Below are positions 9,992 to 60,189 of a DNA stretch of 64,000 nucleotides, in pieces. Each line of letters begins with the position of its first letter. Position 1 is the stretch's first letter. Both the position numbers and the translations under genes were made by a program. Source of the DNA: Paludibacteraceae bacterium (GTDB taxonomy: Bacteria > Bacteroidota > Bacteroidia > Bacteroidales > Paludibacteraceae); the NCBI GenBank assembly GCA_045600225.1, contig JAZRXL010000040.1:2733-66732 (forward strand), in the 5' to 3' direction. The notes beneath the pieces are model-generated. The model had not been told where the DNA came from, ran no database searches, and was given only the letters and a program-made list of their open reading frames with translations.

Positions 9992-11710
9992 CTATTTGTC
10001 AAGAACAGCACGAATACTCAAGCCATAGTATCTCATATTGTGTACAATTTGAGCGTAATGACCTGCAGAACCTGGTTGCAACTTCATACTGCCTGCAACA
10101 ATGGTACTCTCTTCCGACATGTCATTGGCCCAATAATATCCATATACTCCTACATAGTTATTGGTCGAAGTAGTACCAGTCATAGATGAACCTGCAGGGA
10201 AATATAACTTATTTCCGTTAGGTCCTACTGCAATATAAAGGTGGTTTGTTTCATCTCTTTCCCAAGTACACTCTTTTATCAACTCTTCAAAGTCAGCAAT
10301 AGAAGGCATGTGCCACTGACCACCCATCTTTACTCGTGCCACATCATCCGTCAAAGACAAGGATGTTTTCTTGTCAGACGAATTATATTTGCTATATTCT
10401 CCCTTTGCTGAATCGTAAGAGTAAGCATAGTTTGATCGAGAGAAATCTGCATCTTTATCTTTTCCCGTATTGGTAGTTTCTCCCCATGAGAAATACTCTC
10501 CGTAGTCAGATGGCGAACTTGCACCTATATTCGCAGTTGCCCACTTCTTTCCACTTTTCAATCCTAGATCCACATACGCGTAACCATTGTAACGGCATGC
10601 GTTTGATGCATCGTCAATCTCTGCCTGAAGCCTTTCGTTCTCTGATTTCAACTTTGCATTTTCATCAGTCAAACTCTCGTTCTTTGTTTTTAGTTCCGAG
10701 CCCTCCGATTTCAACTGCTCATTTTCACTAGTCAAACTCTCATTCTTTGTTTTCAATTCTGAGTTCTCCGATTTCAACTTTGTATTTTCACTAGTCAGAC
10801 TCTCATTTTTTGTTTTTAGTTCCGAGTTCTCTGGCTTCAATTGGTCATTCTCTGCTGTCAACGTAGAAATTTGCTTCTCGTATTCTGATTTGATCTGCTC
10901 GACTTCAGCAGATGATGTGCAATCATCATTTCCATACAGATCTTTTTCTGAAAATACCGGACGAACCATCATACCTATGTATTCCCAACCTTTCGTATCG
11001 TCAACTCCAGAAAACAAGCCTTTTGTCGTATATGAGTACGCAATATTTAAAGCATAACATTGGGTTGATGTCCAGTACATTCCGCATGGGAATTCGTCAT
11101 AGTGTTTAATTTTAGGATTTTCTTCATCATCTTGTGGGGTATAAAAAGGGAAGAAGATAGAATTTCCGTTGATTTTAGATGTGTACAAGAATCCAGAAAC
11201 CGATGACCCGTTGTAATTTTCGATCCACTCTTCAACACAATTATACATCAACTCTTCAAACTCTTCCTTCGTAGGCATTCTCCATGGTTTATCCAACGCA
11301 CGTCTTGCATGATCACTCTTTCCTACCAATATTCCATTCTCAATATTAGGTTCGCCATGTGTTGAACAATAGTTAGCCTTATTGAACTTTCCTTCATGCG
11401 CCCAATTTTCTCCCCAAGCATACAATGTTCCTTTTTCGTAAGGACGAGAGGCCCACAGGTTACTAACTGCCCACTTCACACTTAATCCTAAATCCACATA
11501 CCCCCATTGATCCAAGACAAATCCATTAGAGTCTTTACGCGGAACAAATCCTGTATAACTTGAACCTTCTTCGTAGGTAACACGTTTTACATTTTCCACA
11601 GAGAAAGTGACCTTCGTATTGTCAGAATTCTCTACTACCATCTGCGTATTAGCGGCAAACGCATTTACCAATGCAAATATCGCCAACACCGACATCACAA
11701 TTTTTTTCAT
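9992..11710 (-). CDS. Secreted protein with two FISUMP/DUF1566-like lectin-type domains joined by a repetitive coiled coil
   Basis: Signal peptide MKKIVMSVLAIFALVNAFA. Two copies of the pattern (V/K)KWAxxN(L/I)...Y(A/F)(A/S)WGE...W(R/H)MP(T/S)xx(E/D)FEEL...YW. Central ENSELKTKNESLTSEN repeats. Confidence 0.65.
   Translation of the reverse strand: MKKIVMSVLAIFALVNAFAANTQMVVENSDNTKVTFSVENVKRVTYEEGSSYTGFVPRKDSNGFVLDQWGYVDLGLSVKWAVSNLWASRPYEKGTLYAWGENWAHEGKFNKANYCSTHGEPNIENGILVGKSDHARRALDKPWRMPTKEEFEELMYNCVEEWIENYNGSSVSGFLYTSKINGNSIFFPFYTPQDDEENPKIKHYDEFPCGMYWTSTQCYALNIAYSYTTKGLFSGVDDTKGWEYIGMMVRPVFSEKDLYGNDDCTSSAEVEQIKSEYEKQISTLTAENDQLKPENSELKTKNESLTSENTKLKSENSELKTKNESLTSENEQLKSEGSELKTKNESLTDENAKLKSENERLQAEIDDASNACRYNGYAYVDLGLKSGKKWATANIGASSPSDYGEYFSWGETTNTGKDKDADFSRSNYAYSYDSAKGEYSKYNSSDKKTSLSLTDDVARVKMGGQWHMPSIADFEELIKECTWERDETNHLYIAVGPNGNKLYFPAGSSMTGTTSTNNYVGVYGYYWANDMSEESTIVAGSMKLQPGSAGHYAQIVHNMRYYGLSIRAVLDK
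10643..10831 (-). repeat. 3 x 63-bp in-frame tandem repeat (21-aa ENSELKTKNESLTSENxxLKS units)
   Basis: Read directly: units at 10769..10831, 10706..10768 and 10643..10705, with degenerate partial units flanking them. Confidence 0.85.
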
Positions 11711-12342: not shown

Positions 12343-12425
12343 CCCGTGGGCGTTACCATGGGCGAATGCAATTCGGTCCAATTGTGTACATTGTTTGCCA
12401 CGGGCGAATGCAATTCACCCCTACC
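12343..12425 (-). repeat. Two degenerate copies of the 42-bp hairpin unit (GGGCGAATGCAATTC...)
   Basis: ccatgggcgaatgcaattcggtcc and gccacgggcgaatgcaattcacccctac. The TAG stop of the 1304-aa gene (12421..12423) lies in the CCCCTAC part of the unit. Confidence 0.8.
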
Positions 12426-15400
12426 TAATTAACGCAAAATGTCCCGTATATTCCCTATCGATTTCTCTCAATTGGATGACATACCAATAATCTGTACTTG
12501 GCATCGGATGTCCGTTATAGGTTCCGTCCCAACCGTCGAACTCGTTATCTATCTCTATCAATAGTTTTCCGAAACGGTCGTAGATACTGACGGTATAGTA
12601 GTTGTAATAGTCCAAATTCTCCACCTCCCATAGGTCATTGACTCCGTCTCCATCTGGAGTCATTATCTCTGCCGGAATAATCTGAACCGCCAAAGAGACC
12701 ACCGAGTCTGCCTGACAGCCCTTTGAATCCATCACCTTCACCAACATCGGCGCTGGAGAGAACTTGGTAGGATAGGTATTCTCCATCTGCCATGGTTCTG
12801 TTCTCCAGAAATATTGGTAACCTGGCGTTCCTCCACTCACCTCCATCGCCAACCATTGGAACGCATCCTCATAGTAGACCGTATCGATCCGAGGATTCTC
12901 CAACACGGCAACTTCCACCGTAAACGAATCTTCACACACCTCGTCTGTCACGTTCACCCTGTAGGTTATATCCGCCACGCCCGCCATGGACGGAGTACTC
13001 TCATTCGTTGAGCTTAGATATGCCGACGGTGTCCACGTATAGTGCAGATTCTCGCAACAGTTTGGCTTGAATCGATAGGTTTCTCCTTCGCATATCTCTA
13101 CCGACACCTGCTCTTCCAATCCAAACTTCGGACGGGTATCTATACGCAACATTCGGATCGTATCATCCTTCAACGTACTCTCGTCGGTATAGTAGCCGTC
13201 ACCAATGTAGCTTCCGCCTCGCCAATCTACATAATGGTCGGGACATGGATCCACAAACAACGTGTCGTAGGTAAAGACATGCAGACTCAAATGCAACAGA
13301 CTATCGCAACCATAGATGGTTTGCTTCAAAAGTTCGTGCGTATAGTCACCCACATCCTTGTGAGTCAGGTTGAAGCCATGACGGGTAAAGAGGTCATTCA
13401 CCTTGACCGTATCGATCAAATAAGTATCCTTGGTCTCATGGACCGTCAACTGCAACGTCACGATACTATCACAGCCATGGATCGTCTTCAACTCATCCAC
13501 ATACGTACCAGCCACCGTATATGGTTTGCCTCCAAAGATAAACTCTTCTCCGTCGCAGATTGTATCGTGTACAGTTACATGGAAGGTATCATGCACAGTC
13601 AAATACAACGTCACAATGCTATCACAACCATAAATGGTCTTTAGTTCGTCAACATAGCTACCTGCCTTCGTGTAAGGATTGCCTCCGAAGATATATTCAT
13701 CTCCGTTGCAGATAGTGTCATAAACAGATACATGGAAGGTATCGTTTACAGTCAAATGCAACGTCACAATGCTATCGCAACCATAAATGGTCTTTAGTTC
13801 GTCAACATAGCTACCTGCCTTCGTGTAAGGTTTGCCTCCGAAAATATATTCATCTCCATTACAGATTGTATCCTTTACCGTCACATGGAAGGTATCATGG
13901 ACTGTCAACTGCAACGTCACGATACTGTCGCAGCCGTGGATCGTTTTCAACTCATCTACATACGTACCTGCCACTGTATATGGCTTGCCTCCGAAGATAT
14001 ACTCGTCTCCATCACAGATTGTATCGAGTACGGTTATATGGAAGGTATCATGCACCGTCAAGTACAACGTCACGATACTGTCACAACCATGGATGGTCTT
14101 CAGTTCGTCCACATAGCTTCCTGCTACTGTGTATGGATTTCCTCCGAAGATATATTTCTCTCCGTTGCAGATGGTATCATAGACAGAGACGTGGAAAGTG
14201 TCGTGCACCGTCAAGTACAAGGTGACGATACTGTCGCAACCATAAATCGTTTTCAGTTCGTCAACATATTTGCCAGACGTCTTATAGGTCTTTCCACCAA
14301 AGATGTATCGCTCTCCGTTGCAGATCGTATCATAGACTGAGACGTGGAAGGTATCGTTCACCGTCAAATGTAACGTCACAATACTATCACAACCATAGAT
14401 GGTCTTCAGTTCATCTACATATTTGCCTGATGTCTTATAAGTTTTTCCACCAAAGATGTATCGCTCTCCATTGCAGATAGTGTCATAAACAGACACGTGG
14501 AACGTATCATGCACAGTCAAATACAACGTCACAATACTATCGCAACCATAAATGGTCTTTAGTTCGTCAACATAGCTACCTGCCTTTGTGTAAGGTTTGC
14601 CTCCGAAGATATATTCATCTCCGTTGCAAATAGTGTCATAAACAGACACATGGAAGGTATCGTTCACCGTCAAATGCAACGTCACAATACTATCGCAACC
14701 ATAAATGGTCTTCAATTCATCTACATATTTGCCCGACTTTTTATAAGTCTTTCCGCCAAAGATGTATTGTTCTCCATTGCAGATGGTGTCATAGACTGAG
14801 ACGTGGAAGGTGTCCAATACGACCAACTCCAAGGTGACGATACTATCTCGTCCTGTGACAGACTTCAACTCATCCACGTAGGTATCCGCTTCAGTCAATT
14901 TCTTTCCTCCAAACAGATACTCTTCTCCCCTACAGATGGAGTCTACGATGGTCGTATCCAGTGGACCCAAAACATTCAGCGTCAGGCGTACTAGACTATC
15001 GCAACCGGCAGCTGTCTTGAGCGACAACTCATGCACATCGCTCGTAGTCTGGGAAGGCAGGTTGAATCCATGCTTCTTGTAGGTCTCTCCCATGCCAACA
15101 GAATCCATGATACCGACTTGATAGGTGGTGTCGACAGTCAGTGCCAACACTGTGGTATGTTTGCATCCGTTGCTACCCGTTGTCTCCACGCTATAGTAGT
15201 TCAGTCCGCAAGAGAGTCCGGCAGGAAGATCGAAGCCATGGCGTCCATACTCCTCCGTCTGGCAGATACGATCGCGCACAGTATCGCGGGTAAGTGGTAG
15301 GACATTCAAGGCAAGTGTCACCGTACTGTCGCATCCGAAAGCTGTGTTCAGATAGGCAGTGTCTTTGTAGACTCCCGCCGCCGTTGCCTTGATGGCGAAG

Positions 15401-16335
15401 CCGTTTTTATTGTAGTATTCCCCTTGGCAGACCTTGTCGGTCAGATTCGTCTTCTTATTGGGCATCACCACCAGTTGGAGGGTTGTGGTGACATCACACT
15501 CACCATTCTCACCTTTCAGTGTCTTTTTGTAGGTTCCGCTCCTTGTCGCCGAGAAACCGAACTTCTCGTAGGTATATCCTTCACAGATGGTATCCTTGAT
15601 AACGGTTGGTGTGGAGGTATTGACAATGATGGTCTTCTCAGCCTTAGCCTGACAGCCATAGTTGTTGGTAGCAGTCACCTCGTAGGTAAAGGTTTTCTTT
15701 GCCTCCTCCACAATCACGCGGCTAGTAGCACCTGTGTTCCACTCATAGGAGATGGTCTCGTCGTACTCTGTATCATCAAAATCTTTTACCAAGAAGAATG
15801 AATTTTTCTCCCTTTGACTTACCGGCTCGAATATTTTCCAAGTTTGAGTATAGCACCAATTATAGCCACTCCCCGCCTCCGTACTCGTTTGAAAGTCATA
15901 ATGTCCGAAAAGGAAATCAGCACTACCTCCCAAATAACCACGGTTGGCCAGCAAATGAAATATTTGCCCAACGGAAGGAACATACCAACCATTCTTGAGT
16001 GATGAAAAATAGGGGTATGCATTTTCATCCCCAGCCTCACGTAATGTCATCGAATTACCATACCCATCAAGATCACCCATCGCTTCTTCTAACGTTTCAT
16101 AATCAGGTAAGGGGCTATTATTATTTTCCCTATTAGAGAAAGCCGCTTTCACAATAGGTTGCTGATCATTGAAGACCCATCCGCTATTGCCATCTTCACT
16201 AAGATAAAAAATAATACCAGATTCACCATTTTCAAAGAAATATCGCTCTCCTAAAAAATGTCTCGCATTCATAGAGGAACAAATGAACCATAAACTAATG
16301 ACAAGGGCAATATGCTTACAATATGATTTGCTCAT
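12421..16335 (-). CDS. Large repetitive surface protein with an N-terminal DUF1566-like domain, about 15 Cys-containing 51-aa modules and a T9SS type B C-terminal domain
   Basis: 1304 aa with a signal-like N-terminus. GIIFYLSEDGNSGW...NGWYVPSVGQIFHLLAN. Repeats DTxCxGxxYxFGGxxYxxxGxYVDELKTIxGCDSIVTLxLTV. C-terminus IPAEIMTPDGDGVNDLWEV...IYDRFGKLL...WDGTYNG...YWYVI is the type B CTD pattern. Confidence 0.85.
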   Translation of the reverse strand: MSKSYCKHIALVISLWFICSSMNARHFLGERYFFENGESGIIFYLSEDGNSGWVFNDQQPIVKAAFSNRENNNSPLPDYETLEEAMGDLDGYGNSMTLREAGDENAYPYFSSLKNGWYVPSVGQIFHLLANRGYLGGSADFLFGHYDFQTSTEAGSGYNWCYTQTWKIFEPVSQREKNSFFLVKDFDDTEYDETISYEWNTGATSRVIVEEAKKTFTYEVTATNNYGCQAKAEKTIIVNTSTPTVIKDTICEGYTYEKFGFSATRSGTYKKTLKGENGECDVTTTLQLVVMPNKKTNLTDKVCQGEYYNKNGFAIKATAAGVYKDTAYLNTAFGCDSTVTLALNVLPLTRDTVRDRICQTEEYGRHGFDLPAGLSCGLNYYSVETTGSNGCKHTTVLALTVDTTYQVGIMDSVGMGETYKKHGFNLPSQTTSDVHELSLKTAAGCDSLVRLTLNVLGPLDTTIVDSICRGEEYLFGGKKLTEADTYVDELKSVTGRDSIVTLELVVLDTFHVSVYDTICNGEQYIFGGKTYKKSGKYVDELKTIYGCDSIVTLHLTVNDTFHVSVYDTICNGDEYIFGGKPYTKAGSYVDELKTIYGCDSIVTLYLTVHDTFHVSVYDTICNGERYIFGGKTYKTSGKYVDELKTIYGCDSIVTLHLTVNDTFHVSVYDTICNGERYIFGGKTYKTSGKYVDELKTIYGCDSIVTLYLTVHDTFHVSVYDTICNGEKYIFGGNPYTVAGSYVDELKTIHGCDSIVTLYLTVHDTFHITVLDTICDGDEYIFGGKPYTVAGTYVDELKTIHGCDSIVTLQLTVHDTFHVTVKDTICNGDEYIFGGKPYTKAGSYVDELKTIYGCDSIVTLHLTVNDTFHVSVYDTICNGDEYIFGGNPYTKAGSYVDELKTIYGCDSIVTLYLTVHDTFHVTVHDTICDGEEFIFGGKPYTVAGTYVDELKTIHGCDSIVTLQLTVHETKDTYLIDTVKVNDLFTRHGFNLTHKDVGDYTHELLKQTIYGCDSLLHLSLHVFTYDTLFVDPCPDHYVDWRGGSYIGDGYYTDESTLKDDTIRMLRIDTRPKFGLEEQVSVEICEGETYRFKPNCCENLHYTWTPSAYLSSTNESTPSMAGVADITYRVNVTDEVCEDSFTVEVAVLENPRIDTVYYEDAFQWLAMEVSGGTPGYQYFWRTEPWQMENTYPTKFSPAPMLVKVMDSKGCQADSVVSLAVQIIPAEIMTPDGDGVNDLWEVENLDYYNYYTVSIYDRFGKLLIEIDNEFDGWDGTYNGHPMPSTDYWYVIQLREIDREYTGHFALIR
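13438..14814 (-). repeat. 9 x 153-bp near-identical in-frame tandem repeats
   Basis: 1377 bp = 9 x 153. Each unit encodes DTFH(V/I)(S/T)V.DTIC(N/D)G..(Y/F)IFGG..Y....G.YVDELKTI(Y/H)GCDSIVTL.LTV(N/H). Confidence 0.95.
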
Positions 16336-18820: not shown

Positions 18821-19236
18821 ATGTGCATTGTTTACCATGGGCGAATGCAATTCACCCCTACTGTGCGCATTGTTCAACATGGGCGAATGCAATTCGCCTC
18901 TACTGTGCGCATTGTTCAACATGGGCGAATGCAATTCGCCCTGTGCGCATTGTTCAACATGGGCGAATGCAATTCGCCTCTACTGTGTGCATTGTTCAAC
19001 ATGGGCGAATGCAATTCGCCCCTACTGTGCGCATTGTTCAACATGGGCGAATGCAATTCGCCTCTACTGTGCGCATTGTTCAACATGGGCGAATGCAATT
19101 CGCCCCTACTGTGCGCATTGTTCAACATGGGCGAATGCAATTCGCCCCTACTGTGCGCATTGTTCAACATGGGCGAATGCAATTCGCCTCTACTGTGTGC
19201 ATTGTTCAACATGGGCGAATGCAATTCGCCCCTACT
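18821..19236 (-). repeat. Tandem array of 10 hairpin-bearing units (nine of 42 bp, one of 38 bp)
   Basis: Unit GTG(C/T)GCATTGTTCAACATGGGCGAATGCAATTCGCC(C/T)CTACT. Unit boundaries at 18821, 18863, 18905, 18943, 18985, 19027, 19069, 19111, 19153 and 19195. Each has an 8-bp stem GGGCGAAT/ATTCGCCC and a 3-nt loop. There are no variable spacers. Confidence 0.95.
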
Positions 19237-31270: not shown

Positions 31271-32491
31271 TTACCTATTCTGAAGTTTATCGACAAGCTT
31301 GGCACATTCAATCTCTGTGAGTCCACAATCGATCACATATTCGTGAGCAGCCTTTTGAAGATCAACAGAAGCAGGGTCAACATTGTTCCAATCAATCACC
31401 TCACCATCTTGAATTGATTTGTAGTTAGCCAGCAACCAGACCATTCTATCAACAGACAATTTACGTCTCATATCATATTCAACACTTCCTTTTTTTATTA
31501 AATAGAAGTTAGACATTGTCACCATATAGTCGTCGGCTACCTCCGTATAAGAAGCTCCAGCCAAGGCTTCAAGTAAAAGAGAAACGAATCCGCATCTATC
31601 CTTTCCCTCATTGCAGTGCACTAGGTAGGGGGCTGAATGATCAACCATAAACAAAAGACCGCGACGCAACTTCGTCTTAAATGTCTCAGAGAAGACAGAA
31701 GCGTCAAGAGCGAGACATACCATATTGCCAGTTCTATACAATTCAGGGCAATATGTAGCAGAGAATCCATCATACATCATATACTCCTCGATTTTCGCAT
31801 CAGTATCAGACAAATCAATTTCTGTCTGAATACCAGCCATTCGAGCCAATTGATCGGCATAAACATACCTCACGGAATTGTTTTTCAGATTGATCGGGTT
31901 ACTAGATCTGTACAATACGCCCTTTGCCATGCCAGAGGTAGTGACCTCCCTGAAGTTGGCGAATTGTGCATCTGTACCATACTTATTCCTATCTGTATCA
32001 TAAACAGAGTGCATAATCTTATAGAGGTCCTTGTATCCACCTTTCTTACTCAAAGTAACGACTATTGGATCGCCCACCTTTCCTCCAATATTGTTTTGGA
32101 AATTCTCATGTAGTTTAGCGAAGCCGAAAGAGATACCTAAGGCGTTGTAATCACACAAGCACACGTCAAAAACTCCAATCTCGTTAAAGCTAGTGACAAA
32201 AGGAATATCCTTCAAGAAGATATCATCACCAATTTGCACGTTGATCAAGTCGGCATAGTCAAAACCTTTTCTTTTCATCTCATCCACCGAAAATGTCGGA
32301 ATCAGCATACCATAGCTGTCAAAGTCAGACACTCTGCCTGAAATTTCAACCTTCGATAAACTATCAGATTCTATTGTTTGTGCTTCATCCTTATCGTACT
32401 CGTCCTTAAGCTCATCTTCGCAGCTTACGAAAAACAATGAAGCCAATGAAATCAAAATCAAAAAAGGGTACTTGAAAAATTTTGTATTCAT
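31271..32491 (-). CDS. Lipoprotein with a C-terminal protein-tyrosine-phosphatase-like domain
   Basis: Lipobox LFFVSC. CX5R signature HCNEGKDRCG. The N-terminal region of about 200 aa is of unknown function. Confidence 0.7.
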   Translation of the reverse strand: MNTKFFKYPFLILISLASLFFVSCEDELKDEYDKDEAQTIESDSLSKVEISGRVSDFDSYGMLIPTFSVDEMKRKGFDYADLINVQIGDDIFLKDIPFVTSFNEIGVFDVCLCDYNALGISFGFAKLHENFQNNIGGKVGDPIVVTLSKKGGYKDLYKIMHSVYDTDRNKYGTDAQFANFREVTTSGMAKGVLYRSSNPINLKNNSVRYVYADQLARMAGIQTEIDLSDTDAKIEEYMMYDGFSATYCPELYRTGNMVCLALDASVFSETFKTKLRRGLLFMVDHSAPYLVHCNEGKDRCGFVSLLLEALAGASYTEVADDYMVTMSNFYLIKKGSVEYDMRRKLSVDRMVWLLANYKSIQDGEVIDWNNVDPASVDLQKAAHEYVIDCGLTEIECAKLVDKLQNR

Positions 32492-32668
32492 AATATTCAG
32501 ATTTTAATTATTTGAAATCTAGTTTTTGCCATCATCGGGTGATTGTTTGTTCCCGTTGACAATGCAAAGTTAGATCAGGTTTCAGGAGCGCAACGAACAA
32601 GAAAGGAAAAAAGAACGGACAGATTGAGAACTTCATATTTTGTACATTTTTCACGAATTGTACATCTT
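32492..32668 (-). promoter_or_regulatory. Conserved promoter/5'-leader module, copy 1
   Basis: -7 box TAACTTTG (plus-strand CAAAGTTA at 32565..32572), then a leader of about 67 nt, with TGTACA motifs at 32641 and 32659. It closely matches 60017..60189. Confidence 0.6.
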
Positions 32669-32722
32669 TATAAATTACTGTATATAAAATAGATAAGATA
32701 AAAACCGGCAATAAAACAAAGA

Positions 32723-32764
32723 TAAAAAAAATCCTAACACATTCATTTCCGAACATGTTAGGAT
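32723..32764 (-). terminator. Rho-independent terminator after tmRNA
   Basis: ATCCTAACA...TGTTAGGAT 9-bp stem, followed on the minus strand by TTTTTTTT. Confidence 0.75.
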
Positions 32765-32774
32765 TAAAATTTCG

Positions 32775-33169
32775 TGGAGATGCAGGGGTTCGAACCCTGG
32801 TCCAAACGAGGAAATCATAAGCTTTCTACATGCTTATTCCTGCCTAGATTTTCGTACGATAGCAAGACCAGGACCACCAACTACCGTCTTATCCTCTAAA
32901 ATTTCATTTAGATATCGAGGCCTACCTAAACTATTCCTGAATTTTCCGCTCCTCCGTATCCGACCGCCTCAGGACTTAGCATCGGGGAGAAGTCTTGTCC
33001 AAACACCCGTGTCTGGATTAAGCCAGTAATCTACTATTATTCGATTAGGCAGCAAGAGCAAAGTTATTCTCGCCAGTTAAATTTTTGGTCTCCAAGATTA
33101 TAGTGCTAGCCACCAGCGCACTGCATGCTTACTTACCACTTCTGCCCGCTGTCAAATCCAGTCATCCCC
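32775..33169 (-). ncRNA. ssrA: tmRNA (transfer-messenger RNA)
   Basis: The 5' end GGGGATGACTGGATTTGACAGCGG pairs with the 3' end GCATCTCCA, giving an acceptor stem with G3:U. T-arm GGGTTCGAACCCC. The internal tag ORF GGC GAG AAT AAC TTT GCT CTT GCT GCC TAA encodes GENNFALAA (33044..33073). Confidence 0.93.
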
Positions 33170-43662: not shown

Positions 43663-46600
43663 ATGTTCATGAAAAAGTTATTGTACATAATTATATTGCT
43701 AACATTGTGCAGTTTACACATACACGGAGAATCCTCTAGATTTTCCATATATCAGTCACAATCGTATGTACCCTACAGTAATATCAATGATATGTTGGAG
43801 GACTCTTATGGTTTCTTGTGGATTGCAACCGAAAACGGATTGATAAAATTCAACGGATACGACTATGTACAATACCAACAAAACAAAGACATTAGCAATT
43901 CCCTACCCAACAACAACTGTCGTACATTAATCGAGGATTCTCAAAACAGATTGTGGATCGGCACTGATAACGGAATAGCCATCTACAACAGAGAGAACGA
44001 CGGATTCGACAGAATAAAACTATCAGGACTCACCAGCTACAACTTTGTGGGTATACAAGAAGACTCTGACGGCAGTTTATGGGCGCTATCTTTCCAAGAA
44101 CTAATAAAACTTTCTCCCGAAGGCGAATTGCAACAAATCTATTCTTATCCTAACGCAGTATGCATGCACCTTGACGGCGACCAAATATGGCTGGGTTCCC
44201 TAATTTATGGACTACACTCTTTCAACAAGGAAGATGCTTCCATCAAAAAACTTGAGATTAAGGATCTGCCAGACGAGCAAGGCCTTCATGTTCGCTGTAT
44301 AAAAAAAGCCTCCAATGGAGATCTTCTAATCGGAACAAGAGACTTGGGACTGGTCATCTACCATCCAGAAACCCATACGTCCGAAGCTCACTACTCTAAC
44401 AACCATCCTGACGTGTTTATTAGTGATTATGTTCTAAGCATATACGAAGATCACAAACACAAAATATGGATCGGATCTGTCAACGGACAATTAATCGAAT
44501 ACGACCCTCAAAAGGACAAGTTCACCGTTCCTGTCTTTAAACACCCTTCCGGAGTAAAGCAACTCACCATCGGTTGCATCATGGAAGACAAGCGACAAGA
44601 CATCTGGGTGGGAACTCACCACTATTGGATTTATCAATGCAATCGAAGCATAAACGCATTCGAACTTCATCAACAAAAAGATCAGCAGGGAAGCCTTTCT
44701 CACAATGCCATCACCTGCTTCTCCGACAACCCTGAGAAAGTACTCATCGGAACCGATGGTGGAGGTTTGAACATATACGACAAGGCATCTGGACAATTTG
44801 CAACGGACACCCGATTCGGGAAGATCATCTTGGACATCAAGAAAGGAAACAAGGAAGGCGAATATTGGATCAGCACTTGGGGAAATAGTCAAATGGGGCT
44901 TATTCAATACAATATCCTAACAAAAGAGTTCAAAAAGCACGAATACAACGTAAACGACTCTTCGTCAATCACTTCAAATCTGCTTCGTGCCATTTTGGTC
45001 GACGGCCCTTATGTATGGGTATCAACCGACGGTGCCGGACTTTGTAGATTAAACACAAACACAGGCCGCATAGACAATAAATACAATTGCGAGGAACCTA
45101 TATTCTCCGTAAAAAACCCACAGTGGGTTAACCATTTAATGCGCGACAAGAAAGGCAGATTATGGTTATGTTCCAGTGAGGGTATCATCTTGTACGACAA
45201 CAATCAATGCAAGAGACTTCGTATCAACCTGATAAGTAACGAAAACCTTCAAAATGAGGTTAAGATGTCTATTGAGGATTCCGATGGCAAAATTTTGTTT
45301 GTCACAGCAAGCAACGGATTAATCCAATACAACGAATCCGACAGCACATTCATCAACCTAAGCAAGACATACAACATACCAACGAACTTGAGTTCACTAT
45401 GCGAGGATGACGAGAAGAACCTATGGATCATATCCGCAGAGGAGATCATCCGATTGAATAGGAAGGAAAATATCGTCCATAATTTCAATATGAGAAACGA
45501 CTTGAATGGTAATCCATTCACGCCTAATGCCATATTCAAATCCGGAGACGATCTGTATGTGGGTTCCAACAATGGTTTTTTCAAATTCAATGTTAAAACG
45601 TTGAGTTTCTCCGATTCTAATCCAAGAATCTATCTGAACGATCTATTTGTTTGGGGAGAAAAGCAGAAGGTGGAGGAGAACGGCATCCTTACCAAAGCCT
45701 TGGTGATGACAGATACCTTAACCCTCACCCACCACAACAACTCCATCAGTATCGATTTCTTTGCGATTGATTACGAACACGCAGACCAGATCAACTATCT
45801 ATACAAGATGGACGGCTTTCAAGATGGCTGGGTGAACACTGGGAAAACAAGACAGGCTTACTTTACCAACCTATCACCAGGGACCTACACATTCCAAGTA
45901 AAAACAATCAGTTTGGATAATAACACAGAAGTCTATTCCAAACCTCTTACCATTATCATACTACCACCATGGTGGCGTACCTGGTGGTTTAGAATTGTCA
46001 GTGGCTTATCTATCTTATTGGCGCTTAACCTATTCCTTTCGTTAAGGGAAAAAGGGCACAAAAAGAAACAAGCCGAATTGGAGAACCTTGTTGCCATAAG
46101 AACCGAAGAGCTTCGATTGATAAACAAAGAGGTACAAGACCAAAAGGAAAGTCTTGAGATTCAAAACAAGCGTCTTGACGAATCCTTGAACACTAAGAAC
46201 AAAATTCTTTCTGTCATCGCACACGACCTAAGGAATCCGTTGACCGCCATCGTAGGCAACCTTTCCCTAATGAGCGAAGAGAATGAATGCGACCGTATCA
46301 AGCAGGTATGCAAATCTGCTAAGAACCTACAAACACAGATGGAGAATCTTTTGGATTGGGCTAGAATCCAAAATCAAAGCATCTTGTACTCTCCCAAAAA
46401 CCATTTCTTGGATGCTTTAACCAAAGAGTGCATCACCCTACTCCAAGGTTTGGTCGAAGAGAAAAACATACAGTTATCATTCCACAATCAATGTCAAACA
46501 TCGGCATTCATAGACCAAAGAATGATCAGTACGGTTTGCCGAAACCTATTGAATAACGCCATTAAGTTTACAAACGAAAATGGACATATTGACATTGACA

Positions 46601-47676
46601 TAAAACAAGAAGACGACCATATCCGTTGGCAAATAAAGGATGACGGTGTGGGAATGACACAGGAACAAAAAGAGAAGTTGTTTGACAAAACGACCACATC
46701 CACAACATTTGGAACCAAAAACGAGAAAGGTTCCGGATTAGGACTGAAGATATGTCAAGAATTCATATCCTATAACAAAGGAAAGTTCCTAATCGAAAGT
46801 GAGAAAGGGAACGGAACCACAATCTCTCTACTACTTCCTATCGGAACAGAGACCCAAGAGAGCAAAGAGGAGAACTCTGCAATTATCGAAAGCAAGAATG
46901 AAGCAAACCACGAGAACAAGAAACACCTTCTCATTGTAGATGACAATGCAGAGATTCTTAGTTTCGTATGCGACCTTCTTCGCCCTTACTATCACATAGA
47001 CAGTGCGAACAACGGAGAGGACGCCCTGCAAATAGCAAGGAAGGAGATTCCCGACCTGATCATATCGGACATCGTCATGCCAAAGATGGATGGAAGGGAG
47101 CTTTGCCACTGCATTAAAGAGGATGCTTTAACGCGACATATACCGGTAATACTTCTCACTTCAGAAGACACCGTGGAGGATCAAGTTCAAGGCCTCAACA
47201 TTGGTGCAGACGATTATATCACGAAACCATTCAATGCAGAGATATTGAAAGCAAAGATCGTCACTCTACTCAAAAACAAAGAGTTACAAAGAGAGCATCT
47301 ACGCACACGCATACTTCGCATGCCAGAATTGGAGATACCAGAAAGTATCGATGATGCTTTCATTTCTAAAATCAATGCAGTCATTAAGAAGAACATTGGA
47401 GATAGCAATCTGACCGTCGAATTCTTAGCATCCGAAACTGCATTCAGTCGCGTACAGTTATTCAGGAAGATGAAGGCAATCACTGGTTGCTCTCCTTCTG
47501 AATACATCAAGGCAATGAGACTTGAACATGCGGCAGAGATATTAGTACAAAGTAAACAAAGCATTGCGGATGTTGCCTACATGGTGGGATTCTCCGATCC
47601 TAAATATTTCAGCAACTGCTTCTCCGAGAAGTTTGGTGCAACACCATCTCAATACATAAAAGAGAACAAAGGGTAA
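43663..47676 (+). CDS. Hybrid two-component system protein (periplasmic beta-propeller sensor, histidine kinase, receiver, AraC-type HTH)
   Basis: 1337 aa. Propeller repeats (LWIGT/WVGT), TM helix, HisKA SVIAHDLRNPLT, HATPase GSGLGL, REC LLIVDDN...SDIVMPKMDG, and a C-terminal AraC HTH. Confidence 0.92.
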   Translation: MFMKKLLYIIILLTLCSLHIHGESSRFSIYQSQSYVPYSNINDMLEDSYGFLWIATENGLIKFNGYDYVQYQQNKDISNSLPNNNCRTLIEDSQNRLWIGTDNGIAIYNRENDGFDRIKLSGLTSYNFVGIQEDSDGSLWALSFQELIKLSPEGELQQIYSYPNAVCMHLDGDQIWLGSLIYGLHSFNKEDASIKKLEIKDLPDEQGLHVRCIKKASNGDLLIGTRDLGLVIYHPETHTSEAHYSNNHPDVFISDYVLSIYEDHKHKIWIGSVNGQLIEYDPQKDKFTVPVFKHPSGVKQLTIGCIMEDKRQDIWVGTHHYWIYQCNRSINAFELHQQKDQQGSLSHNAITCFSDNPEKVLIGTDGGGLNIYDKASGQFATDTRFGKIILDIKKGNKEGEYWISTWGNSQMGLIQYNILTKEFKKHEYNVNDSSSITSNLLRAILVDGPYVWVSTDGAGLCRLNTNTGRIDNKYNCEEPIFSVKNPQWVNHLMRDKKGRLWLCSSEGIILYDNNQCKRLRINLISNENLQNEVKMSIEDSDGKILFVTASNGLIQYNESDSTFINLSKTYNIPTNLSSLCEDDEKNLWIISAEEIIRLNRKENIVHNFNMRNDLNGNPFTPNAIFKSGDDLYVGSNNGFFKFNVKTLSFSDSNPRIYLNDLFVWGEKQKVEENGILTKALVMTDTLTLTHHNNSISIDFFAIDYEHADQINYLYKMDGFQDGWVNTGKTRQAYFTNLSPGTYTFQVKTISLDNNTEVYSKPLTIIILPPWWRTWWFRIVSGLSILLALNLFLSLREKGHKKKQAELENLVAIRTEELRLINKEVQDQKESLEIQNKRLDESLNTKNKILSVIAHDLRNPLTAIVGNLSLMSEENECDRIKQVCKSAKNLQTQMENLLDWARIQNQSILYSPKNHFLDALTKECITLLQGLVEEKNIQLSFHNQCQTSAFIDQRMISTVCRNLLNNAIKFTNENGHIDIDIKQEDDHIRWQIKDDGVGMTQEQKEKLFDKTTTSTTFGTKNEKGSGLGLKICQEFISYNKGKFLIESEKGNGTTISLLLPIGTETQESKEENSAIIESKNEANHENKKHLLIVDDNAEILSFVCDLLRPYYHIDSANNGEDALQIARKEIPDLIISDIVMPKMDGRELCHCIKEDALTRHIPVILLTSEDTVEDQVQGLNIGADDYITKPFNAEILKAKIVTLLKNKELQREHLRTRILRMPELEIPESIDDAFISKINAVIKKNIGDSNLTVEFLASETAFSRVQLFRKMKAITGCSPSEYIKAMRLEHAAEILVQSKQSIADVAYMVGFSDPKYFSNCFSEKFGATPSQYIKENKG

Positions 47677-59203: not shown

Positions 59204-59791
59204 CTACACGATCCGCTTTGTTTCAATCACCCTATCTCCTCCTCCTATGAATTTAATCACTTTTTCCTTTGACAACCCTCTTAGTTCCAATCTTCGAACT
59301 CCTGAATTAGCTGCTGGATCTTCCAATTGGTTAAGTACCTTAGCGGCAAATTTACAGTTGAGTACCGCATCATCCGCTTTAGTCTCCATCTTGGCAATAG
59401 CGTCTGACTTTGGCGTGGCAATGACTTTTACTGTGACAGGTGAATTACCAAACTGCTTAGTCATTTTATATTTCTTATACTTAACGATACGTGGTTCTCC
59501 ATTTTTATTGCATTCGGTAATCTCTTCCGTTTTGTTCATATCATCAAGCACTTCAACGATCTCCTCGCCTTGATATTCGTAGGTAGCTTTGAGAACATAA
59601 AAATCAGCTATGTCCTCGGCAATGTCTGCATAAACATCAATTACCTTGGTGTCTGCTCGTTTTGAGTTTTGGACATATTCTGACATATTGTCGAGTTCCT
59701 CCATTTCTTCGTTCTTACAAGAAACACAGAAGAAATTTGTAGTTGCAGTTAAAAGAAGAGTTGCTACTGGGAAAAAGAATTTTGTATTCAT
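59204..59791 (-). CDS. Hypothetical lipoprotein
   Basis: 195 aa. MNTKFFFPVATLLLTATTNFFCVSC lipobox. The first codons and the upstream leader closely match those of the 31271..32491 gene. Confidence 0.6.
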   Translation of the reverse strand: MNTKFFFPVATLLLTATTNFFCVSCKNEEMEELDNMSEYVQNSKRADTKVIDVYADIAEDIADFYVLKATYEYQGEEIVEVLDDMNKTEEITECNKNGEPRIVKYKKYKMTKQFGNSPVTVKVIATPKSDAIAKMETKADDAVLNCKFAAKVLNQLEDPAANSGVRRLELRGLSKEKVIKFIGGGDRVIETKRIV

Positions 59792-59866
59792 AATATTTAA
59801 ATTTTGACTGTTAGTAATCTTGTTTCGTTTTTATCATCGGGTTGTCTTATCTTTTCTATTCGTCTA
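59792..59866 (-). promoter_or_regulatory. Truncated copy of the conserved 5'-leader (copy 2)
   Basis: aatatttaaattttgactgttagtaatcttgtttcgtttttatcatcgggtt aligns with 32492..32545 and 60017..60068. It lacks the -7 box part. Confidence 0.5.
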
Positions 59867-60016
59867 CTAAATAGATAGGCAAGCCAACAAAAATATCACA
59901 ACGTAAGCGACGCCCATCGCTATCATGACTTTACGTGTCTTAGGATCTTTCATATCCTTTTCCATTTGGGGAACATCTACTGAATAAAATAAGTAGTTAA
60001 CATCATTCGTATACAT
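59867..60016 (-). CDS. Small ORF, 49 aa, single predicted TM helix (below the track cutoff)
   Basis: MYTNDVNYLFYSVDVPQMEKDMKDPKTRKVMIAMGVAYVVIFLLACLSI*. It sits directly after a full leader module. Confidence 0.35.
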   Translation of the reverse strand: MYTNDVNYLFYSVDVPQMEKDMKDPKTRKVMIAMGVAYVVIFLLACLSI

Positions 60017-60189
60017 AATCTTAAATTTTAATTGTTAATAATCTTTTCCGTTTGTGTCATTGGGTTGTCGTTTGTTCCCGTTGACAATGCAAAGGTAGGG
60101 TGACTTTCAGGGGGACGACGGACAGTTCAGGAAAAGCATACGGACAAGTTGTGAAGTTCTCATTTTGTACATTTTCACAGATTGTACAT
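60017..60189 (-). promoter_or_regulatory. Conserved promoter/5'-leader module, copy 3
   Basis: -7 box TACCTTTG (plus-strand CAAAGGTA at 60089..60096). The segment gtttgttcccgttgacaatgcaaag is identical to copy 1. TGTACA motifs at 60165 and 60182. Confidence 0.6.

Follow-up and report, generated by a model that had tools for sequence, protein, structure and literature searches.

The stretch of DNA analysed here (the window) comprises 64,000 nucleotides (nt) of contig JAZRXL010000040.1, assembly GCA_045600225.1, from a Paludibacteraceae bacterium. It contains two full copies of a short module, made up of a repeat array, a promoter box and a leader that can fold into a hairpin, each in front of a gene. 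Copy 1 lies at about 32489-32663 and copy 2 at about 60014-60187. Both modules and the genes behind them are on the minus strand. Copy 1 is placed between the terminator (32730-32765) of the tmRNA gene (32772-33169) and the gene of a 406-amino-acid (aa) lipoprotein (31271..32491). The signal peptide of this lipoprotein ends in ...FFVSC and the protein carries a tyrosine-phosphatase-type domain (Pfam Y_phosphatase3, E = 1.8e-13); an exact look-up of the sequence gave no match. Copy 2 precedes an open reading frame (ORF) of 49 aa with a C-terminal membrane segment (59867..60016). The second gene of this operon encodes a 195-aa lipoprotein (59204..59791, MNTKFFFPV...FFCVSC) and begins 75 nt past the 49-aa ORF. 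The 75-nt gap holds copy 3 (59789-59820, minus strand), which consists of the translation-initiation region only, AGATTACTAACAGTCAAAATTTAAATATTATG, and lacks array, promoter box and hairpin.

The similarity of the two full copies had been noticed in an earlier note, which aligned 32474..32668 with 60001..60189 and proposed a shared promoter and leader. This alignment is borne out by a repeat search of the window, in which 32532-32650 and 60057-60175 match over 119 nt with 75% ungapped identity, all on the minus strand. The 24-mer TTTGCATTGTCAACGGGAACAAAC occurs exactly twice in the window (32545-32568 and 60070-60093) and was matched in none of 100 dinucleotide shuffles, even at 3 mismatches. 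Together with the preceding C, it makes up the 25 identical bases described in that note. Copy 3 appears in the repeat search as a leader-only match to copy 1 (32475-32525 and 59775-59825, 51 nt, 82% identity). A nucleotide profile of the module (nhmmer) detects the two full copies with E values of 9e-51 and 2.5e-58 and the leader-only copy (59771-59843) with 1.2e-6. The likeness between copy 1 and copy 2 far exceeds chance. The smaller shared features that had been listed, namely the -7 boxes, the TGTACA pairs, ACGGACA, the AT-rich leader and the first codons (ATGAATAC and ATGTATAC), are all found at both sites.

Beyond the window, we collected 19 copies or fragments of the module from related Paludibacteraceae metagenome-assembled genomes (MAGs) and metagenomes. 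An exact scan for the core 20-mer with one genome per species gave six matches, all in Paludibacteraceae MAGs, plus three obvious chance matches. Second copies inside loci L002 and L008 were seen on closer reading. One frame of the module lacks stops and is at times called as a hypothetical protein, and profiles of this pseudo-protein were used as search query. Word search yielded P0002-P0007. An exhaustive HMMER search over 1.84 billion representatives returned only 10 proteins at E ≤ 0.001, with P0008-P0011 as new entries; apart from P0010, a false positive, the ten comprise nine true module translations (P0002-P0009 and P0011). Their contigs provided loci L020-L029, one of them annotated as Candidatus Physcocola equi, family Paludibacteraceae. 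Several copies can occur in the same genome: at least three in MAG082, at least two in MAG085 and two on contig L021. Carriers of the module include GCA_045601005.1, JAKSKV01 (Horse_feces82), JAKSKY01 and GCA_018064855.1. We conclude that the module is real, that genomes can hold several copies of it and that it is restricted to a narrow clade. Copies in nine or more further assemblies, before varied envelope and secreted-protein genes, agree with the small regulon that the earlier note had suggested.

Every complete copy runs in the same direction as a gene, and in 13 of 16 copies about 55-95 nt separate the core from the start codon; the leaders of L027 and L029 are about twice as long, and L009 has no start codon nearby. 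Many assemblies end inside the module (L014-L019, L009, L021b and L026). Such breaks are expected at a repeat, and in a metagenome they are no proof of extra copies in the same genome. Two wider scans returned no module: the upstream-only pattern TGTCCG-N5-TTTTCCT-N4-TGTYCGT gave four chance matches in metagenomes, and the core gave a single GC-rich chance match in viral contigs. We also considered the module as a protein-coding small ORF. A 1-nt insertion interrupts the frame in copy 1, and start codons are not conserved. Variation lacks 3-base periodicity (entropy by codon position 0.33, 0.40 and 0.34). Hence the pseudo-ORF is not a gene.

The region 5' of the -7 box resolves into an operator-type repeat array, in line with the operator that the earlier note had considered. 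The array consists of four 14-bp units (U1 to U4) with the consensus GTACAA-N3-GTGAA in the order → → ← ←, from about -102 to -35 relative to the predicted transcription start. U1 and U2 are direct repeats 17 nt apart. U3 and U4 have the opposite orientation and are 22 nt apart. U2 and U3 stand head to head and form the palindrome TGTGAAgTTCACA. The array of copy 1 runs from 32595 to 32663 (32595..32663, minus strand), with U1 GTACAATTCGTGAA (32650-32663) and U2 GTACAAAATATGAA (32632-32645) on the minus strand, and U3 TTCTCAATCTGTCC (32617-32630) and U4 TTCCTTTCTTGTTC (32595-32608) in reverse orientation. For copy 2 (60120..60187, minus strand), the repeat search recovers the direct repeat at 17-nt spacing and the inverted repeat; the units are U1 GTACAATCTGTGAA (60174-60187), U2 GTACAAAATGAGAA (60157-60170), U3 TTCACAACTTGTCC (60142-60155) and U4 TTCCTGAACTGTCC (60120-60133). 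Across the window the unit pattern matches 7 times, with 1.5 matches expected, and 5 of the 7 lie inside the two arrays.

The same architecture emerges in other species. At L025, an unguided repeat search finds GTACAATTTGTGAA and GTACAAATTGTGAA at 17-nt spacing and TTCACAAACTGTCC and TTCCTAAACTGTCC at 22-nt spacing; the inverted pairs between the U1/U2 and the U3/U4 sets are 83-87% complementary. L029 contains the same four units. In an alignment of 16 copies, the invariant columns lie in the array units and the -7 box.

Primary-sigma promoters of Bacteroidota, whose sigma factor is of the sigma-A type, carry a TAnnTTTG box at positions -12 to -5 and a TTTG element near -33 (PMC7366714, PMC9723704). 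The module shares the TAnnTTTG box, and the spacing between box and start codon is suitable. All 16 copies have TA..T, and TTG is nearly invariant among them. Copy 1 has the box TAACTTTG (32565..32572, minus strand), with a predicted +1 at 32560, and copy 2 has TACCTTTG (60090..60097, minus strand), with a predicted +1 at 60085. The predicted start is the G of TTGTC, about 5 nt past the box, and is placed from the position of the -7 box only. The resulting leader would mostly measure about 70-95 nt, but L027 and L029 would have one of about 150-160 nt. TTTG near -33 is found in no copy: positions -38 to -30 are taken up by the end of U4 plus GTCGCA. The -33 element was likewise not recovered in Flavobacterium johnsoniae (PMC7366714). 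What distinguishes the module is that the promoter-proximal repeat unit holds the -35 position instead, which suggests dependence on a bound factor. Copy 1 has a second perfect TAnnTTTG box, TATCTTTG (32717-32724, minus strand), between the tmRNA terminator and the array. This box is not conserved in the other copies and could supply copy 1 with an additional upstream start.

Downstream of the predicted start, the first 35-45 nt are predicted to form one conserved hairpin in most copies, in keeping with the structured leader that had been suspected. Its general shape is (A)UUGUC-AA-CGGG(A), a CA-rich loop of 10-18 nt, and (U)CCCG-AC-GACAA, that is, two stems at the predicted 5' end of the transcript. 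In copy 1 (32530..32562, minus strand) the hairpin reads (U)GUCA-A-CGGG-[AACAAACAAUCA]-CCCG-A-UGAU, with a minimum free energy (MFE) of -8.4 kcal/mol and z = -1.81. In copy 2 (60055..60087, minus strand) it reads UGUCA-AC-GGG-[AACAAACGACAA]-CCC-AA-UGACA, with an MFE of -7.6 kcal/mol and z = -1.78. Eleven of the 12 copies or fragments folded share this architecture (z from -1.0 to -3.9). In the MAFFT alignment 93.5% of cells can pair in register, compared to 33-70% when the 3' partners are slid. L022, L026 and L028 have CGUC/GACG in place of UGUC/GACA (U-A to C-G), and L025 has GAGA/UCUC in place of GGGA/UCCC (G-C to A-U). A covariance model of the hairpin found every copy again but left the 3' arm of L025 one base out of register. 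Hence the compensatory inner stem of L025 is visible only in its own fold and not in the pair counts. The 5' half of the loop, GGGAACAAAC, is almost invariant. The long leaders of L027 and L029, the two most divergent copies, hold extra GC-rich hairpins: CTCCTCCCCTCGGGGAGG immediately 5' of the ATG in L027 (3225-3265) and GCAAAGGTTTTCCTTTGC in L029 (2425-2455). These may be added regulatory or terminator-like elements.

The last part of the module is an AU-rich translation-initiation region that leads into the start codon. It spans 32489..32520 in copy 1, ending in the ATG at 32489-32491, and 60014..60044 in copy 2 (AGATTATTAACAATTAAAATTTAAGATTATG), both on the minus strand. Without the rest of the module, GATTATTAACAATTAAAATTTAAA-N-TATG also precedes second genes of operons, as in copy 3 of the window (59789-59820), L008 (1203-1249), L021 (769-819) and L003 (2408-2468).

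The genes behind the module are not homologous to each other. They encode membrane ORFs of 47-49 aa, secreted repeat proteins of 117-145 aa, lipoproteins of 195-199 aa and proteins of 133, 118, 92 and 406 aa, and BLASTP shows that the downstream proteins are mostly unrelated. The likeness of the 195-aa and 406-aa lipoproteins of the window is limited to the first 33-34 residues, with 46% identity (E = 8e-4). A homologue search with the 49-aa ORF found only itself; its relatives in L002 and L008 have 55% protein identity. Each driven product carries a signal peptide, the signal of a lipoprotein or a membrane segment. The second genes of three operons end in a C-terminal type A sorting domain for type IX secretion (T9SS; TIGR04183), with 28.0, 23.1 and 24.2 bits at a cut-off of 23. 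These genes lie at L003 (2408 onward), L008 (1203 onward) and L021 (806-2875), and their N-terminal parts measure 116, 152 and 689 aa. Because all products are of the envelope or secreted type and include T9SS cargo, the set can be described as a surface and secretion regulon. In L026 (136-207) of Candidatus Physcocola equi, the module stands before a hydrophobic peptide of 23 aa, MGFIAAILLASAFGVAINTFVKD, followed by a leader-only stretch and the gene of a secreted protein. The peptide parallels the 47-49-aa membrane ORFs of other loci.

Conservation of the module exceeds that of the genes it drives, a pattern of selection rather than drift. A comparison of the copy-2 locus of the window to its small-ORF orthologue in L002 gives 81% identity for the 190 nt upstream of the gene, 65% for the coding sequence and 57% for the next 200 nt upstream. 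Hence the module is not a neutral recent duplication. Copy 2 is 79-88% identical to copies in other species and 70-78% identical to copy 1, and in the array region the two window copies are only 70% identical. Since copy 2 is closer to the copies of other species than to copy 1, the two window copies are old.

Copies are also mosaic. The array of L002a is 99% identical to that of L008a, which drives a different gene. In its leader, L002a agrees at 100% with its orthologue L008b, whose array is only 85% identical to that of L002a. Similarly, L002b combines an array 99% identical to that of L003 with a leader 100% identical to that of L001. The junction of this reassortment between array and leader is the invariant core. 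We read such mosaics as the signature of recombination or gene conversion between copies. Recombination between copies would explain how one control region came to stand before unrelated genes.

To account for these observations, we propose that the module is a regulon-defining cis-regulatory cassette. Through it, a narrow clade of gut Paludibacteraceae would control unrelated envelope and secreted-protein genes by a single circuit, and the cassette would have been spread and homogenised by recombination. We put the probability of this reading at roughly 65%. A DNA-binding regulator, probably acting as a dimer of dimers, would occupy the four 14-bp units between about -102 and -35. It would most likely be an activator that recruits RNA polymerase with the primary sigma factor from a site abutting -35; we consider an activator more likely than a repressor solely because the -33 element is missing and because of where U4 lies. 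Transcription would start about 5 nt past the box at the G of TTGTC, so that the mRNA begins with the two-stem hairpin and its CA-rich loop. The hairpin most likely protects the 5' end or docks a factor. The AU-rich stretch, which is reused before internal genes of operons, would then present the start codon. Recombination at the invariant core would spread the copies and keep them similar.

Even L027 and L029 retain the array, the -7 box and, at the predicted start, GTCAA. Being the most persistent parts, these suggest that the module serves primarily in transcriptional control via the array. The hairpin with its invariant loop appears to be an added layer in the main subfamily.

Several points weigh against this proposal. 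Sampling is biased: the early copies were found by the exact core 20-mer and the later ones by the profile of the spurious ORF, which includes the core. The invariance of the core is thus partly built in, since sampling depended on the core or its translation. The predicted transcription start of every copy is derived from the position of the -7 box. Covariation in the hairpin is thin, with one pair that shows a double change and a shuffle control that is not significant; the 5' arm is nearly invariant, and the changes in the 3' arm that preserve pairing are transitions that are expected anyway. L027 has no hairpin (z = +0.35), and none is evident in L029, as judged by eye from the unfolded sequence. 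Finally, we found no regulator gene common to the module neighbourhoods. The window does contain a hybrid two-component regulator with an AraC-type DNA-binding domain (43663-47676, plus strand, 1337 aa), about 11 kb from copy 1 and about 12 kb from copy 2, but nothing ties it to the module. Of the 16 window proteins that were compared to Pfam, no other has a DNA-binding domain. At L020 an OmpR-type pair lies 1.8 kb from the module. A literature search brought up no relevant Bacteroidales regulator with a site of the TGTACA type.

Alternatively, the functional core could be the RNA. The leader would then regulate translation or stability in cis through a bound protein, small RNA or ligand, and conservation of the upstream DNA would be secondary. 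The conserved hairpin with its negative z-scores and two kinds of compensatory change points in this direction, as do the almost invariant 5' half of the loop and the recurrence of the translation-initiation stretch even without a promoter. We nevertheless think this unlikely, if worth keeping in mind. The most divergent copies lose the hairpin and retain array, -7 box and GTCAA, and conservation of the roughly 70 nt upstream of the predicted start equals that of the leader. The module matches no Rfam family (up to an E value of 10, only snoRNA and miRNA noise appears; in the window, only the tmRNA and two tRNAs reach gathering score), and no terminator or sequestering alternative fold of the leader is predicted.

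An extension of the regulatory proposal is that the module propagates itself. It might be an expression module in which the four-unit operator of a global surface regulator is fused to a new protein- or RNA-binding leader (the two-stem hairpin and its invariant GGGAACAAAC loop, together with the reusable initiation stretch), with surface and T9SS-cargo genes recruited by recombination at the core. We regard this as speculative and rather unlikely. If true, the module would be a natural system of promoter swapping through which uncultured gut Bacteroidales diversify their surface.

The copies could also stem from transposition rather than from selection for co-regulation. In this case the module would be a miniature mobile element, similar to miniature inverted-repeat transposable elements (MITEs) or Correia elements, with an incidental outward-facing promoter. 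Such an element would be expected to occur several times per genome and in several species, to be mosaic and to break assemblies, all of which we observe. Neighbours of the module are often variable, defence-like or toxin-like, which would suit a mobile element as well. However, the flanks of four loci hold no terminal inverted repeats common to the copies. Complete copies all have one orientation relative to the gene, mostly at the distance from the start codon given above, and conservation comes in blocks like those of binding sites instead of being uniform. Orthologous positions are kept: the window and the horse-gut MAG loci L002 and L008 each have a copy before the small-ORF gene. Moreover, the 3' part of the module occurs alone before internal genes of operons. 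A mobile element is therefore an improbable explanation.

Other promoter types fit even less well. Invertible promoters for surface proteins are common in Bacteroidales (as cited in PMC7366714), and the module could be such a phase-variable promoter. Yet the four loci inspected have no inverted repeats around the module, and all 19 copies face a gene, in one orientation only. An alternative sigma factor is suggested by eye, since TTGCA past the box resembles the -12 element of sigma-54 promoters and CCTGAA the -35 element of extracytoplasmic function (ECF) sigma promoters. For sigma-54, which calls for GG at -24 and GC at -12, TTGC is present, but the -24 position reads TTGCCC, CTGATC or TCACCC and is unconserved. 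For ECF sigma factors, which call for an AAC-type -35 and a CGT-type -10 element, CCTGAA varies (CCTAAT, CCGGAA, CTCTAA and others), as does the CGT of the proximal unit, whereas TAnnTTTG is conserved. Each of these promoter types is very improbable.

A neutral origin without shared regulation, in which the module would be left over from a recent segmental duplication or from paralogous genes with retained 5' ends, is barely credible: several driven genes do have similar first codons (MNTKFF..., MKTRFFF...) and the window lipoproteins align over their first 33-34 residues only, but the window copies, 70% identical in the array region, are each 79-88% identical to copies of other species, the noncoding part is more conserved than the coding sequence in front of mostly unrelated proteins, and cross-species conservation already contradicts it.

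The cassette that we propose has relatives among known systems. The closest described phenomenon is promoter reuse by putative mobile promoters, similar upstream regions that stand before non-paralogous genes (Matus-Garcia, Nijveen and van Passel 2012; commentary PMC3575422). The defining threshold is an identity of 80% or more across 50 nt or more, located between -150 and -50, for genes that are not paralogous and belong to a single genome. The module likewise stands before non-paralogous genes in one genome and is common to related taxa. Pairs from MAG082 pass the threshold (L003/L008a with 98% over 50 nt, L003/L008b with 90%), whereas the pair in the window, at 78%, falls just below 80%. 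In contrast to the described cases, the anatomy of the module is resolved into array, -7 box, hairpin and initiation region, and its reassortment at a defined junction is visible. Promoter reuse itself is already known; new here are a reused promoter-and-leader cassette with its own operator architecture and a leader hairpin outside Rfam.

Operators of the LytTR family consist of paired direct repeats just upstream of -35, with 11-13 bp between the repeats (PMC6193735, PMC4227749). U3 and U4 resemble such a pair, because they repeat at 22 nt and end at about -35; taken as 9-bp sites, they are 13 bp apart. On the reverse strand U3 reads ACAGTTTGT, which we take to fit the LytTR consensus. U1 and U2, however, repeat at 17 nt, outside the LytTR spacing, and the array is dyad-symmetric with a central palindrome. 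No LytTR gene is present among the 16 window proteins scanned against Pfam, a minority of the window ORFs. We treat the likeness as a lead and not as a claim of membership.

Stem-loops at the 5' end are able to stabilise bacterial mRNAs, as in the ompA leader of E. coli. The hairpin of the module is similar in that it is predicted to lie 0-3 nt from the (likewise predicted) 5' end of mRNAs for envelope proteins. It differs in its conserved loop sequence, which a purely structural stabiliser does not require, and in being missing from two divergent copies.

To our knowledge, almost nothing is known about transcription control in Paludibacteraceae. The module offers a concrete, testable regulon for this uncultured family of herbivore-gut Bacteroidales, and its defined operator array can be used as bait for the regulator. 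It flags as co-regulated, and hence as functionally linked, a set of small membrane peptides and secreted proteins that includes T9SS cargo. The module is also a clear natural case of promoter and leader reuse with visible recombination junctions. As a compact promoter-plus-leader unit, it may serve as an expression part.

Among the neighbours of the module are genes for NADase_transloc, AAA_15 with PLDc_2, and a Type ISP restriction enzyme (L022, L025, L026 and the flanks of L001 and L008). A HipA-like gene and an XRE-type regulator gene, both named by eye from their N-terminal sequences, also occur. These neighbours hint that the regulon genes lie in flexible regions of the genome.

The window contains further repeats. 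A tandem array at 18825-19236 comprises 9.9 copies of a 42-nt unit, GCATTGTTCAACATGGGCGAATGCAATTCGCCCCTACTGTGC, with 94% matches, and each unit holds the hairpin GGCGAAT-GCA-ATTCGCC. Two more 42-nt units lie 6.4 kb away (12353-12424), and a related element adjoins the module of L001, just upstream. This looks like a dispersed repeat of Paludibacteraceae, similar to repetitive extragenic palindromic (REP) sequences and not in Rfam. Two ORFs on the minus strand are internally repetitive. The ORF at 12421-16335 (1304 aa) has nine tandem repeats of 153 nt (51 aa) at 13432-14811, and the ORF at 9992-11710 (572 aa) has three 63-nt repeats at 10637-10831. Both probably encode repetitive surface proteins.

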